Assembly (NCBI RefSeq): GCF_041248615.1
Contig: NZ_CP158426.1
Length of the DNA stretch: 64,000 nucleotides
Source of the DNA: Escherichia coli
GTDB lineage: Bacteria > Pseudomonadota > Gammaproteobacteria > Enterobacterales > Enterobacteriaceae
Reading direction: 5' to 3' (one strand)
The notes under the pieces: model-generated
What the model was told of the DNA's origin: nothing
What the model saw: the letters and a program-made list of their open reading frames with translations, nothing else
Databases searched by the model: none
Shown here: in pieces, positions 32,969-36,061 of the stretch
Layout of the letters: each line of letters opens with the position of its first letter
Position numbering within the stretch: position 1 is the stretch's first letter
Position numbers and translations under genes: made by a program

Positions 32969-33502
32969 ATGCGCCTGCTCCCTCTCGTTGCCGCAGCGAC
33001 AGCTGCATTTCTGGTCGTTGCCTGCAGTTCTCCTACGCCGCCCCGTGGCGTGACAGTAGTGAATAATTTCGATGCTAAACGCTATCTCGGTACCTGGTAT
33101 GAGATTGCCCGTTTTGATCACCGCTTTGAACGTGGACTGGAAAAAGTCACCGCAACATACAGCCTGCGGGATGACGGCGGCCTGAATGTCATTAATAAAG
33201 GCTATAACCCTGACAGAGAAATGTGGCAGCAGAGTGAAGGGAAAGCGTACTTTACCGGCGCACCAACTCGCGCTGCGCTGAAAGTGTCATTCTTTGGTCC
33301 TTTCTATGGCGGTTATAACGTTATTGCACTCGATCGGGAATACCGCCATGCGCTGGTTTGCGGCCCGGACCGCGACTACCTGTGGATACTCTCCCGCACG
33401 CCAACCATTTCTGACGAAGTGAAACAGGAGATGCTGGCAGTCGCGACCCGGGAAGGGTTTGATGTCAGTAAGTTTATTTGGGTACAGCAGCCCGGTAGTT
33501 AG
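32969..33502 (+). CDS. blc: Outer-membrane lipocalin lipoprotein Blc (177 aa)
   Basis: Translation with lipobox LVVAC and a lipocalin fold signature; matches Blc. Its stop codon overlaps the sugE stop codon on the opposite strand by 2 nt. Confidence 0.9.
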
Positions 33503-33816
33503 TGAGTGCTGAGTTTCAGACCAATAATCCCCAATACGATTAACGCCAGACTCGCCAGGCGCATCGGGTTAGCGGACTCGCCGAGCAGCACAATGCCGGT
33601 GATGGCCGCGCCGACTGCGCCAATACCCGTCCACACGGCATAAGCCGTCCCTACTGGTAACGATTTCATCGCCCAGGCAAGTAGCGCCATACTGACAATC
33701 ATCGCCGTCACAGTAATAACACTTGGCGTCAAACGACTAAAGCCGTGGGTATATTTCAGGCCAACGGCCCATACCACTTCCAGCAGACCAGCAATAACTA
33801 AGATAATCCAGGACAT
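33499..33816 (-). CDS. sugE: SMR-family guanidinium exporter Gdx/SugE (105 aa from ATG at 33816)
   Basis: Translation [29 protein letters not shown]... (four-TM SMR protein with conserved Glu); the ORF track extends it to 126 aa from an upstream alternative start. Confidence 0.9.
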
Positions 33817-33832
33817 ATCAGGCTCCGGAGAA

Positions 33833-33882
33833 TTGGGGCCGTCCCCGGTGAAAAGAGGCGTTTGCAGGTCGTCCTGCAAAGC
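33833..33882 (-). promoter_or_regulatory. Guanidine-II (mini-ykkC)-like riboswitch in the sugE 5' leader
   Basis: The minus strand reads TTTGCAGG-ACGA-CCTGCAAA, a 14-nt linker, then GGGG-ACGG-CCCC: two GC-rich hairpins each capped by an ACGR tetraloop, ending ~17 nt upstream of the sugE ATG. Confidence 0.55.
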
Positions 33883-33946
33883 TGATGGTTGAACGGATAT
33901 TTTGCCAGGTGGCAGGGGAATTTCAACTATTACCTTTGTGACTATC

Positions 33947-33985
33947 GCAAAAAAACAAACGGCACGACATAACTGTCGTACCGTT
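33947..33985 (-). terminator. Rho-independent terminator downstream of ecnB
   Basis: The minus strand reads acggtacgacagttatgtcgtgccgt followed by TTGTTTTTTTGC. Confidence 0.6.
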
Positions 33986-33990
33986 ATTGC

Positions 33991-34137
33991 TTACTGCTGC
34001 GCTTTCGTTGCTGCGCCAGAAATCGCGTTACCGCCATCAGAAATGTCTTCACCAACGCCACGCGTGGTGTTGCAGGCAGTTAATACTGTTGAAAGCACCA
34101 GAACAGAAAAGATCGCTGCAATTGTCTTCTTCACCAT
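33991..34137 (-). CDS. ecnB: Entericidin B lipoprotein (48 aa)
   Basis: Hand translation [48 protein letters not shown]; lipobox LTAC. Below the 60-aa ORF-track cutoff. Confidence 0.85.
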
Positions 34138-34247
34138 AACGTCTTCCTTTTAGGTAATGTTATTTATGTTTGCCTATAGCAAATTAATAATAGACAACAT
34201 CACCAAAAATGATGGAAATCTGATGATTTTTCGGAAGAGAAGAAAAA

Positions 34248-34373
34248 TTAGCTGGCAGCGCGGGAGATGGAATTACCGAGATGTTTAATGTCTTCACCAA
34301 AACCGCGAGCGGTGTTACAGCCCGTGAGCAGCGCACTGGCAAGCAAAACAAGAACGATAAGGCGTTTCATCAT
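34248..34373 (-). CDS. ecnA: Entericidin A lipoprotein (41 aa)
   Basis: Hand translation MMKRLIVLVLLASALLTGCNTARGFGEDIKHLGNSISRAAS; lipobox LTGC; paralogous to ecnB. Below the ORF-track cutoff. Confidence 0.85.
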   Translation of the reverse strand: MMKRLIVLVLLASALLTGCNTARGFGEDIKHLGNSISRAAS

Positions 34374-34424
34374 CTCTGACCTGAATAAGTGATGGTGCAG
34401 CCTGCAGGCCGCACCACAACCGCA

Positions 34425-34991
34425 TTACTTCACGCGAGAGACGTATTCACCAGAGCGGGTATCCACTTTGATGACTTCGCCGATTTGTACAAACAGCGGA
34501 ACTTTAACCACAGCGCCAGTAGACAGGGTAGCCGGTTTGCCGCCAGTACCTGCGGTATCACCTTTCAGGCCCGGATCGGTATCCACGATTTCCAGTTCAA
34601 CGAAGTTCGGCGGAGTAACGGAGATCGGCTGACCATTCCACAGAGTTACGATACACTCTGCCTGATCCAGCAGCCATTTAGCGTTGTCGCCAATTGCTTT
34701 TGCATCAGCAGACAGCTGCTCGAAAGTTTCGTTGTTCATGAAGTGCCAGAACTCACCGTCGTTGTACAGGTAAGTCAGGTTCATATCGACAACATCAGCG
34801 CCTTCAGCGGAATCAGTAGATTTGAAGGTTTTTTCTACGCGAGTACCGGTCAGCAGACGACGCAGTTTAACGCGAGCAAATGCCTGGCCTTTACCCGGTT
34901 TTACGAATTCACTCGCTTCAACCGCGTAAGGTTCGCCGTCTAACATGATTTTAAGACCAGCACGAAAATCGTTGCTATAGTACGTTGCCAT
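34425..34991 (-). CDS. efp: Translation elongation factor P (188 aa)
   Basis: Translation [47 protein letters not shown]... including the KPGKG loop carrying the modified Lys34. Confidence 0.97.
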
Positions 34992-35032
34992 AAGGCCCTC
35001 TGAAATTTGTTAATTGGTAGCTAAGCCACAAA

Positions 35033-36061
35033 ATGGCGCATATTGTAACCCTAAATACCCCATCCAGAGAAGATTGGTTAACGCAACTTGCCGATGTTGT
35101 GACCGATCCTGATGAACTTCTGCGTCTTTTGAATATAGACGCGGACGAAAAACTGTTGGCCGGACGCAGCGCCAAAAAGCTGTTTGCCCTGCGTGTGCCC
35201 CGCTCATTTATCGATCGCATGGAGAAAGGCAATCCGAACGATCCGCTTTTGCGTCAGGTAATTACCTCGCAAGATGAGTTTGTCGTCGCGCCCGGATTCT
35301 CCACCGACCCGCTGGAAGAACAGCACAGCGTAGTGCCAGGTTTGTTGCATAAATACCACAACCGGGCGCTTTTGCTGGTCAAAGGCGGCTGCGCGGTAAA
35401 TTGCCGCTATTGCTTCCGTCGCCACTTCCCCTATGCCGAAAATCAGGGCAACAAGCGTAACTGGCAAACTGCACTTGAGTATGTTGCTGCGCATCCGGAA
35501 CTGGACGAGATGATTTTCTCCGGCGGCGATCCGCTGATGGCGAAAGATCACGAGCTGGACTGGTTGCTCACACAACTGGAAGCCATCCCGCATATCAAAC
35601 GTCTGCGGATTCACAGCCGTCTGCCGATTGTGATCCCGGCACGCATCACAGATGCGCTGGTTGAACACTTTTCACATTCTACGCTGCAAATCTTGCTGGT
35701 GAATCACATCAACCATGCCAATGAGGTAGATGAAACATTCCGTCAGGCGATGGCTAAGTTGCGCCGGGTAGGCGTTACTTTGCTGAACCAGAGCGTTCTG
35801 TTACGTGGTGTGAACGATAACGCGCAAACGCTGGCAAACCTGAGTAATGCGTTGTTCGATGCGGGCGTGATGCCGTATTACCTGCATGTGCTCGATAAAG
35901 TACAGGGCGCGGCGCATTTTATGGTGAGTGATGACGAAGCACGGCAGATTATGCGTGAGTTGCTGACACTGGTGTCGGGATATCTGGTGCCTAAACTGGC
36001 GCGAGAAATTGGCGGCGAACCCAGCAAAACGCCGCTGGATCTCCAGCTACGCCAGCAGTAA
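35033..36061 (+). CDS. epmB: EF-P lysine 2,3-aminomutase EpmB (342 aa)
   Basis: Translation with radical-SAM CxxxCxxC (CAVNCRYCFRRHF); matches YjeK/EpmB, divergent from efp. Confidence 0.95.
   Translation: MAHIVTLNTPSREDWLTQLADVVTDPDELLRLLNIDADEKLLAGRSAKKLFALRVPRSFIDRMEKGNPNDPLLRQVITSQDEFVVAPGFSTDPLEEQHSVVPGLLHKYHNRALLLVKGGCAVNCRYCFRRHFPYAENQGNKRNWQTALEYVAAHPELDEMIFSGGDPLMAKDHELDWLLTQLEAIPHIKRLRIHSRLPIVIPARITDALVEHFSHSTLQILLVNHINHANEVDETFRQAMAKLRRVGVTLLNQSVLLRGVNDNAQTLANLSNALFDAGVMPYYLHVLDKVQGAAHFMVSDDEARQIMRELLTLVSGYLVPKLAREIGGEPSKTPLDLQLRQQ

Follow-up and report, generated by a model that had tools for sequence, protein, structure and literature searches.

The annotated entericidin genes ecnA and ecnB of Escherichia coli: a tandem pair of small lipoprotein genes between efp and sugE

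The window, a 64,000-nt stretch of Escherichia coli DNA, carries the already known and annotated chromosomal entericidin genes ecnA and ecnB, which makes the locus an ordinary finding (Table 1). Both are minus-strand mini-genes, and the ORF listing reproduced to the base the original prediction of two tandem genes of 41 and 48 amino acids at 33991-34373. At these lengths both fall under a 60-amino-acid cut-off, which had correctly been named as the reason for their absence from the ORF track. Over 1,601 bp, the DNA of this region matched E. coli 042 and other strains at 100% identity, and on this identical DNA the RefSeq gene order is efp-ecnA-ecnB-sugE-blc, with EcnA as WP_000977754.1 and EcnB as WP_000239596.1. 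Most of this 1.6-kb region was found in 5,421 of 5,426 E. coli genomes, with a 161-bp ecnA segment showing 90-95% identity to the window in 1,051 of the 5,421 records. Residue 14 of the EcnA signal peptide is Ala here and Thr in two other E. coli strains.

Table 1 Features of the entericidin locus and its surroundings, with positions counted in the window
Feature	Position	Strand	Details	Basis
ecnA CDS	34248..34373	-	ATG start; 41-aa pre-lipoprotein MMKRLIVLVLLASALLTGCNTARGFGEDIKHLGNSISRAAS	ORF listing
EcnA lipobox	34317..34328	-	L16-T17-G18-C19, Asn at +2	Read from translation
ecnB CDS	33991..34137	-	ATG start; 48-aa pre-lipoprotein	ORF listing
EcnB lipobox	34072..34083	-	L19-T20-A21-C22, Asn at +2	Read from translation
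efp's terminator-like stem	34388..34421	-	G+C-rich hairpin, -22.6 kcal/mol, z -2.8; no clean U run here	
ecnA-ecnB spacer	34138..34247	-	110 nt; carries ecnB's own promoter	
First sigma-S-type -10 box	34187..34193	-	cTATTAT (TTGTCTATGCTTAAG in most species)	Sequence, conserved block
Second -10-like box	34173..34181	-	TGCTATAGG (GCTATACAC in most species)	Sequence, conservation
ecnB Shine-Dalgarno	34143..34149	-	AAGGAAG, 5 nt upstream of ATG	
Predicted MicA sRNA pairing site	34106..34136	-	ecnB +2 to +32, codons 1-11	RNAduplex
ecnB intrinsic terminator	33948..33985	-	12-bp stem, then TGTTTTTTTG	Terminator scan, folding
Promoter-like site ahead of riboswitch	33899-33926			Promoter scan
Guanidine-II (mini-ykkC) riboswitch	33834..33880	-	sugE/gdx leader; neighbour, outside the pair	Rfam RF01068
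sugE	33499-33816			RefSeq annotation
Antisense ORF over ecnB	33902..34153	+	83 aa, TTG start	ORF listing

The 41-aa peptide scored 112.7 bits against the NCBIfam equivalog model for EcnA (NF007319, cut-off 86) and the 48-aa peptide 121.9 bits against that for EcnB (NF007487, cut-off 94), and because neither reached the cut-off of the model for its partner, there is no doubt which gene is A and which is B. The two peptides also exceeded the gathering threshold of Pfam PF08085 (26.5 and 30.2 bits versus 23.3). The protein search that had been suggested for the pair thus upheld its identity as entericidins, which follows from the family models, the RefSeq annotation, the conserved neighbours efp and sugE, and conservation of the lipobox and the core. 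EcnA and EcnB are paralogues, as indicated by 52% identity across 44 amino acids (BLASTP, E 2e-13), and their translations contain the anticipated LTGC and LTAC motifs followed by NTxRGxGEDI. A search of the PDB revealed no relative of EcnB at E values up to 1.

Each gene would encode a signal peptide with a lipobox cysteine, giving rise to a very short mature lipopeptide: 23 amino acids for EcnA (CNTARGFGEDIKHLGNSISRAAS) and 27 for EcnB. Lipoboxes were recognized by the pattern [LVI][ASTVI][GAS]C, and EcnA additionally gave a weak match to Pfam LPAM_1 (17.7 bits, under the cut-off of 20). The mature core CNTxRGxGEDI is present in both peptides, with CNTARGFGEDI as the EcnA consensus across 64 species among the matches listed, and the columns of the lipobox Cys and the following Asn were at least 90% conserved in the 64 orthologues of each gene among the matches listed. 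Under the '+2 rule', the Lol pathway delivers lipoproteins with Asn at +2 to the outer membrane, and from this residue we infer that both EcnA and EcnB are probably located there. The helical hydrophobic moment was 0.59 for EcnA (exceeded by 0 of 2,000 shuffles) and 0.41 for EcnB (exceeded by 0.1% of 2,000 shuffles), so the mature peptides of both genes would be amphipathic if helical.

Related loci were collected by an exact-pattern scan that returned at least 77 enterobacterial species loci. Overall, the order efp-ecnA-ecnB with both genes kept was seen at 63 of 77 species loci among the matches listed, and tblastn mapping placed efp and sugE beside the genes in about 80 species among the matches listed. 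An intact ecnB without an intact adjacent ecnA occurred at 13 of the 77 species loci among the matches listed, a frequency biased by the exact-pattern scan and scored beside ecnB only, such that unlinked copies elsewhere in the genome are possible; Budvicia aquatica, for example, has unlinked A-type and B-type genes. Decayed ecnA remnants were still in place in three of the 13 listed loci (S. enterica arizonae, C. amalonaticus and Intestinirhabdus). Four or more genera with relatives that retain both genes showed loss of ecnA and retention of ecnB, with the ecnB promoter and Shine-Dalgarno sequence intact, and the EcnB protein of the ecnA-less Enterobacter sp. ENT03 is identical to that of the ecnA-bearing Enterobacter sp. 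Bisph1. The mature parts gave pN/pS values of 0.25 for ecnA and 0.15 for ecnB (64 species among the matches listed), which indicates purifying selection on both ORFs and speaks for ecnA being a genuine coding gene in the species that carry it.

The spacer between the two genes measured 99-117 nt, including the stop and start codons, in 55 of 64 species among the matches listed. A terminator at this place had been raised as a possible source of differential expression; none emerged, as a consensus scan of 34138..34247 called no terminator-like site and RNAalifold found 0 conserved pairs in 30 species among the matches listed. Since the spacer is without a terminator, read-through from ecnA into ecnB is possible. 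Differential expression stems from a separate promoter that serves ecnB and lies in the spacer, in place of an intergenic terminator (PMC5389655). This promoter has been described as sigma38-dependent and poorly used by sigma70, with an overlapping OmpR site, a -10-like pause motif at +4 to +9 and a pause at +17/+18 (PMC5389655). The box at 34187..34193 is, judging from its sequence, the putative -10 element of the ecnB promoter, and the second box would be the true -10 or, alternatively, the sigma38 pause element already described. Candidate transcription start sites accordingly lie at about 34181 or about 34169, both placements fitting the published description (PMC5389655).

The -10 boxes and Shine-Dalgarno sequence of ecnB are also conserved in species that lack an upstream ecnA, and the AAAGGAAG block at the Shine-Dalgarno sequence is conserved in the alignment of 30 species among the matches listed. 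In this strain, pairing with the anti-Shine-Dalgarno sequence was stronger for ecnB (-5.6 kcal/mol) than for ecnA (-3.2 kcal/mol). Across 64 species among the matches listed, however, the ecnA site (median, -7.0 kcal/mol) was as strong as that of ecnB (median, -5.6 kcal/mol), and a weak ribosome-binding site was rejected as the general cause of undetected EcnA, being weak only in this lineage. Upstream, ecnA begins directly behind efp's terminator-like hairpin in an efp-ecnA gap of 51 nt. A strong hairpin fills this gap in 64 species among the matches listed (median, -24 kcal/mol), and the consensus terminator scan did not call the one at 34388..34421. For these hairpins the minimum-energy fold draws the U run into extra pairs across species, which confounds counts of U runs.

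The small RNA MicA represses ecnB mRNA (PMC3551931). With a query sequence confirmed as MicA by Rfam (RF00078, 83.9 bits), RNAduplex paired MicA nucleotides 1-28 with the start of ecnB at -24.2 kcal/mol, an energy matched by 0 of 1,000 shuffles and falling in the top 0.9% of 567 genomic windows. The predicted site is kept in other species, and its position at codons 1-11 fits the published repression. A corresponding pairing at the ecnA start (-20.9 kcal/mol) was rejected, as it contains a 25-nt internal loop and was equalled by 6.8% of shuffles and 5.8% of genomic windows.

Downstream, the ecnB terminator comprises 12 pairs, six of them G-C, with a loop of four (-21.5 kcal/mol, z -4.3). The leader structure of sugE that had been placed next to the pair proved to be a guanidine-II riboswitch, scoring 50.4 bits against a gathering threshold of 32 (E 2e-08) over the full model (1-48), with ACGR loops GGACGACC and GGACGGCC. 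The plus-strand ORF over ecnB, which the original prediction had called spurious, exists as an open frame; it had no match in a Pfam search and is absent from the RefSeq annotation. Its stop-free stretch varied from 41 to 98 codons across 79 species among the matches listed, and we judged it to be non-coding and rejected it as a gene.

The best overall explanation, to which we assign a probability of roughly 90%, is a chromosomal entericidin locus of tandem paralogues that are not tightly coupled, with EcnB an abundant, regulated envelope lipoprotein and an antidote role that is not obligatory. Published work describes RpoS-driven induction of ecnB in stationary phase and its repression by OmpR and MicA. 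EcnB is among the small E. coli proteins most commonly detected by mass spectrometry, reaching as many as about 70,000 copies per cell, with its lipidation asserted by curation (PMC12529367). We read EcnB as an abundant stress-regulated lipoprotein because of this control and these tens of thousands of copies. The expectation that both small ORFs are translated therefore holds for EcnB through mass spectrometry (PMC12529367); EcnA, by comparison, was not detected (PMC3686733), and no protein-level evidence for it was found in the literature searched.

Mechanistically, ecnA and ecnB would not form a tightly coupled operon: the spacer is without a terminator, yet the ecnB promoter boxes are conserved and published mRNA levels are uncoupled. 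With its own sigma-S-type promoter, a strong Shine-Dalgarno sequence, a clean intrinsic terminator and first ~30 coding bases complementary to MicA, ecnB would supply an abundant small envelope lipoprotein under stationary-phase and envelope-stress control. EcnA, its paralogue, would be present at low abundance and may modulate EcnB.

The pair had been introduced as an antidote/toxin-like module, which correctly reflects how papers describe it and how RefSeq names the products ('lipoprotein toxin entericidin B' and 'lipoprotein antitoxin entericidin A'). In the 1998 model behind it, EcnB is bacteriolytic, EcnA is its antidote and their balance decides whether stationary-phase cells lyse at high osmolarity; as a true toxin-antitoxin module, we consider this unlikely, although several observations speak for it. 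According to papers citing the single direct functional test in E. coli (Bishop et al. 1998, J Mol Biol 280:583), EcnB overproduction led to lysis that was eased by ecnA co-expression, and an EcnB homologue secreted by Enterobacter C6-6 is cited as antibacterial (in PMC7296081). The tandem linkage at 63 of the 77 listed species loci, with its near-constant spacer, and the strong amphipathicity of both mature peptides, if helical, also favor this model.

Against it, an addiction module would have its antitoxin always accompany the toxin, whereas ecnB is kept with its promoter and Shine-Dalgarno sequence where ecnA is absent or decayed at 13 of 77 listed loci, unlinked copies being possible, and the EcnB sequence itself is the same with or without ecnA in the Enterobacter pair above. 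Cells carry the ~70,000 copies of EcnB without being killed (PMC12529367), with EcnA undetected (PMC3686733), and remain viable when ecnB mRNA rises 7- to 13-fold without ecnA (PMC5105897). Conversely, ecnA mRNA can rise without ecnB (PMC5854682). The Keio ecnA deletion exists and is viable (PMC7296081), the two genes have separate promoters (PMC5389655), and the Agrobacterium family member Atu8019 caused neither lysis nor pore formation (PMC7296081). Together, the repeated loss of ecnA and the published data argue against an obligate toxin-antitoxin pair. We infer that the antidote relationship of EcnA is not obligatory, and the comparison of loci suggests that the textbook 'antidote/toxin' label is weaker than its use in annotation would have it. 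A bolder version holds that EcnB is no antidote-needing toxin at all but an abundant RpoS-induced, MicA-repressed housekeeping or stress lipoprotein, that ecnA is dispensable, poorly expressed and repeatedly lost, that the toxin and antitoxin names are wrong and that the 1998 lysis was an overproduction artefact of a membrane-active lipopeptide; for this version we put the chances at even.

A second alternative is a single ecnAB operon in which a spacer hairpin and an anti-Shine-Dalgarno helix attenuate transcription or ecnB translation. The spacer RNA of this strain does fold to -24.7 kcal/mol (z -3.75, with no shuffle as good), and CUCUUC just past the ecnA stop pairs with GGAAGA of the ecnB Shine-Dalgarno region (~34142-34238). 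However, the hairpin is not followed by a U run and coincides with no called terminator-like site, and the alignment of 30 listed species retained none of its pairs. The conserved blocks are instead promoter-like DNA motifs and the Shine-Dalgarno sequence, which are kept where ecnA is absent upstream, and the published promoter puts the transcription start within the hairpin (PMC5389655). We rejected the hairpin as a conserved RNA element, as the E. coli fold is not conserved and the published start lies inside it, and regard attenuation as very improbable. Finally, the notion that one or both entericidin ORFs are chance and that the real gene is the plus-strand 83-aa ORF can be dismissed as virtually without prospect: the mini-ORFs are shorter than usual gene-calling lengths, 83 antisense codons are open and the frame runs without a stop for 60 codons or more in 48 of 79 species among the matches listed, but both minus-strand peptides score at equivalog level with a conserved lipobox, purifying selection is visible in the sense frame, EcnB peptides have been seen by mass spectrometry (PMC12529367), and the antisense frame has no family match, variable ends and no annotation, and crosses both the ecnB terminator and the sugE promoter.

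Cut-offs of 60 amino acids hide real, highly expressed genes, and such a cut-off was the sole reason that the pair was missed; as a scan result the pair carries little weight, being annotated in essentially every E. coli genome. Wider interest is confined to the 'toxin/antitoxin' label, which rests on one overexpression study and sits uneasily with the repeated natural loss of ecnA, the abundance of EcnB and the independent control of the two genes. EcnB ranks among the most abundant small lipoproteins that E. coli makes.

Among related loci, those of Citrobacter, Enterobacter and Klebsiella (ecnA-ecnB-ecnR-sugE) share the efp-ecnA-ecnB order, the ~110-nt spacer and the ecnB promoter boxes and Shine-Dalgarno sequence. 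They differ downstream: the ecnB-sugE gap is about 1 kb in many other species but 174 nt (33817-33990) in E. coli, and C. werkmanii has a divergently transcribed 199-aa ORF between ecnB and sugE, presumably an ecnR-type regulator, whereas E. coli has no such gene. In its regulation, ecnB resembles the MicA targets ompA and tsx and the small RpoS-dependent envelope lipoproteins, being induced in stationary phase in an RpoS-dependent manner and, like ompA and tsx, repressed by MicA through 5'-end pairing, predicted in the case of ecnB, around the start of translation; the sequences are unrelated, and the likeness is one of regulation only.

With classical toxin-antitoxin or post-segregational killing modules such as hok/sok and mazEF, ecnAB has in common a small envelope-active peptide that is reportedly lethal when overproduced and a linked counteracting gene. 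Unlike those systems, the ecnAB partners are both paralogous lipoproteins with separate promoters, and it is the 'antitoxin' that is repeatedly lost and whose deletion is tolerated, whereas the 'toxin' stays and is naturally abundant. Atu8019 of Agrobacterium tumefaciens shares the Pfam family and, as a small lipoprotein of the surface or outer membrane, is close to the entericidins in size, but it is a single gene, unlike the ecnA/ecnB pair (PMC7296081). It has been reported to act in the docking of outer-membrane vesicles, and its overproduction left cells unlysed and liposomes undisrupted (PMC7296081).

We found both minus-strand mini-genes, of 41 and 48 aa, exactly where the original prediction had placed them, and they are the known entericidin pair, as established by family-model scores and the RefSeq annotation of the region (frdBCD, ampC, blc, sugE, ecnB, ecnA, efp, epmB). 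The 41-aa peptide (MMKRLIVLVLLASALLTGCNTARGFGEDIKHLGNSISRAAS) scored 112.7 bits on the NCBIfam EcnA equivalog model (cut-off 86) and the 48-aa peptide reached 121.9 bits with the EcnB model (cut-off 94); neither passed the cut-off of the other's model, and both exceeded the gathering threshold of Pfam PF08085. EcnA and EcnB share 52% identity over 44 aa (E 2e-13), and their translations comprise, from N to C terminus, a basic N-terminus, a hydrophobic stretch, the predicted lipobox (LTGC with Cys19 in EcnA, LTAC with Cys22 in EcnB) and the NTxRGxGEDI core. The 60-aa cut-off was the sole cause of their absence from the ORF track, and the plus-strand ORF described as antisense to ecnB does exist. 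The window is E. coli chromosomal DNA. The surrounding 1601-bp segment is 100% identical to several complete E. coli genomes, including strain 042, and is covered to at least 80% in 5421 of 5426 E. coli genomes. Overall, ecnA and ecnB are real, conserved, paralogous pre-lipoprotein genes at a locus that is already known: it carries an annotation in essentially every E. coli genome, and its regulation has been published. The modest additions of this analysis are a null result for a terminator or attenuator in the spacer and an apparent repeated loss of ecnA with ecnB kept.

Features of the entericidin region, in window coordinates
Feature	Position	Strand	Remarks
efp	end at 34425	-	51-nt gap to ecnA
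efp-ecnA hairpin	34388-34421	-	G+C-rich; -22.6 kcal/mol, z -2.8; nearly fills the gap
ecnA ORF	34248-34373	-	ATG start, 41 aa
Spacer	34138-34247	-	110 nt
First sigma-S-type -10 box	34187-34193	-	cTATTAT
Second sigma-S-type -10 box	34173-34181	-	TGCTATAGG; in tandem
ecnB Shine-Dalgarno	34143-34149	-	AAGGAAG; strong
ecnB ORF	33991-34137	-	ATG start, 48 aa
Antisense ORF	33902-34153	+	TTG start, 83 aa
ecnB intrinsic terminator	33948-33985	-	textbook; 12-bp stem and T run
Sigma70-like promoter	33899-33926	-	only sigma70-like match within 33400-35100
Guanidine-II (mini-ykkC) riboswitch	33834-33880	-	full-length; RF01068, 50.4 bits versus 32
sugE/gdx	33499-33816	-	gene behind riboswitch leader

A terminator between the two genes had been suggested as a route to differential expression, but the terminator scan returned no terminator-like site in the spacer, and differential expression is due to ecnB's own promoter. 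An alignment of 30 orthologous spacers revealed DNA-like conserved blocks (TTGTCTATGCTTAAG; GCTATACAC; AAACAAYATTGGC; AAAAGGAAGA), still present in species without ecnA upstream, which agree with the published ecnB promoter. That promoter is sigma38-dependent, poorly used by sigma70 and overlaps an OmpR site, and its initially transcribed region contains a -10-like pause motif (second position at +5, pause at +17/+18; PMC5389655). Transcription starts at about 34181 or about 34169 both fit this description. In the window strain the spacer RNA folds unusually well (-24.7 kcal/mol, z -3.75) into a long imperfect hairpin and an outer helix formed between the ecnB Shine-Dalgarno and a CUCUUC segment immediately past the ecnA stop codon. 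We rejected an attenuator or translational occluder because the RNAalifold consensus of the 30 spacers contained 0 conserved pairs, the blocks that are kept are promoter-like, and the ecnB transcription start lies inside the hairpin by either placement. Compared with other genera, the E. coli-lineage spacer (34142-34238, minus strand) contains an additional AAATAACATTACC segment. As a result, a long, imperfect inverted repeat (GGTGATGTTGT…ATAACATTACC) surrounds the ecnB promoter, and this repeat might just as well be a site for protein binding at the DNA level.

Upstream, the promoter scan found no promoter-like site for ecnA, which is therefore probably transcribed by polymerase reading past the efp terminator or from an efp-internal start. 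A strong hairpin occupies the efp-ecnA gap in 64 of 64 species examined (median -24 kcal/mol). In the window strain CACUUAUUCAGG takes the place of a clean U run 3' of its stem, and no terminator was called there by the consensus scan; the hairpins inspected in Citrobacter werkmanii and Salmonella are followed by a T run. The ecnA Shine-Dalgarno is weak in the window strain (-3.2 kcal/mol, against a cross-species median of -7.0).

Translation, implied for both genes, holds for EcnB, which is among the E. coli small proteins most often detected by mass spectrometry, at up to ~70,000 copies per cell (PMC12529367); our literature search found no protein-level evidence for EcnA. The ecnA transcript can be measured, and its level changes independently of ecnB (PMC5854682); a LolCDE inhibitor raises ecnB 7- to 13-fold but not ecnA (PMC5105897). 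Across 64-species orthologue sets, the EcnA signal peptide evolves freely (pN/pS 0.61, versus 0.25 for the mature part); the latter value and the conserved lipobox and core support ecnA as a coding gene where present. For EcnB, the corresponding values were 0.20 and 0.15.

A possible explanation for this constrained signal peptide is pairing with MicA, an sRNA reported to repress the ecnB transcript in both Salmonella and E. coli (PMC3551931); according to the literature, ecnB is also induced by RpoS and repressed by OmpR. The MicA query sequence, confirmed by its score on RF00078 (83.9 bits), lies between the E. coli genes luxS and gshA. RNAduplex predicted pairing of MicA nt 1-28 with ecnB +2 to +32 (34106-34136) at -24.2 kcal/mol, equalled by 0 of 1000 shuffles and within the top 0.9% of 567 genomic windows; the same predicted site was seen in other species, and pairing with ecnA was not significant. 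The constrained codons (34072-34137) coincide with this site, which suggests RNA-level selection on the EcnB signal-peptide coding sequence.

We surveyed other species, one genome each, with an exact degenerate-pattern scan that yielded at least 120 loci, a biased sample because exact matches were required and counts are among the matches listed. These matches extend to Halomonadaceae, Aeromonas, Sphingomonadales and Chthoniobacterales. Among the matches listed, 77 species loci were directly preceded by efp and had 700 nt or more of downstream sequence; 63 carried ecnA then ecnB, 13 ecnB only and 1 an A-type gene only. The ecnB-only loci kept the ecnB promoter boxes and Shine-Dalgarno. Decaying remnants of ecnA persist in place in Salmonella enterica subsp. 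arizonae (start codons lost, 11-nt core deletion, 1-nt insertion), Citrobacter amalonaticus (a 13-nt deletion removing the GFGEDI core) and Intestinirhabdus (heavily decayed). In Superficieibacter, Pseudescherichia, Phytobacter massiliensis, Enterobacter asburiae, Enterobacter sp. ENT03, Tenebrionibacter and Kluyvera, no ecnA could be recognised in the efp-ecnB interval; in the remaining ecnB-only locus, from Serratia sp. M24T3 (L100), the B-type gene is more divergent. Both genes are retained by sister taxa (P. diazotrophicus, E. cloacae, other Citrobacter), and S. enterica diarizonae has an intact ecnA ORF with GFCEDI, so the losses are independent of one another.

Several further observations concern gene content. 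In Kluyvera genomosp. 3 (locus L054, 1961-2200), with no ecnA upstream, a C-terminal frameshift extends ecnB to 79 aa (…AISGQQPRRSNKS…), which may reflect either a sequencing error or decay of the gene. Budvicia aquatica carries its B-type gene (L024, 6036-6170) and its A-type gene (L025, 4528-4659; ~500 nt from a sugE homologue) on different contigs, and pair linkage is therefore not universal in Enterobacterales. Far outside Enterobacterales, tandem family pairs occur in Halomonadaceae (L015, L016, L040, L044, L046, L057, L059, L081, L118) and in Chthoniobacterales (L049, L063); in the Halomonadaceae pairs both members belong to the 'GG' (EcnB-like) type, a pattern that suggests the gene has been tandemly duplicated independently and recurrently. 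Within E. coli, the ecnA segment (34230-34390) is more polymorphic than its surroundings, with 1051 of 5421 records matching the window at 90-95% identity across its 161 bp, compared with 3 of 5425 in that range across the surrounding 1.6 kb. Of the 25 records listed in this comparison, all except one still have ecnA annotated as intact; the final record of the list, NZ_CM132268.1, matched only 74% of the segment, in two places.

The classical reading of EcnB as toxin and EcnA as antidote stems from the 1998 original study, in which, according to citing papers, EcnB overproduction caused lysis that EcnA relieved. The mature peptides are amphipathic if helical (hydrophobic moment 0.59 for EcnA and 0.41 for EcnB, above nearly all shuffles). 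An obligate relationship is argued against by the ecnA losses, the identical EcnB sequences of ecnA-less Enterobacter sp. ENT03 and ecnA-bearing Enterobacter sp. Bisph1, the viability of the Keio ecnA deletion strain (mentioned in PMC7296081), EcnB abundance and the separate promoters, although ecnB-only genomes may hold unlinked ecnA copies elsewhere. We consider the classical reading unlikely, and whether the label is simply wrong an even call. We favor EcnB as a putative abundant, stress-regulated envelope lipopeptide, under its own promoter, Shine-Dalgarno and terminator and with a predicted MicA site at its start. Asn at +2 would place both proteins at the outer membrane. The membrane activity of EcnB would be lytic only on gross overproduction, and EcnA would be a dispensable modulator at most.

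Downstream of ecnB, the remark that the pair adjoins a sugE leader structure was correct, since a promoter and a guanidine-II riboswitch lie between the ecnB terminator and sugE; the terminator-like pattern scan also flagged the first riboswitch hairpin (33861-33880). In Citrobacter werkmanii (L003, 9775-10374, plus strand), a divergently oriented 199-aa ORF, which we take to be an ecnR-type regulator, separates ecnB from sugE. Unlike this arrangement, the E. coli interval spans 174 nt (33817-33990) and has no regulator gene, and a dedicated regulator was therefore lost or never present.
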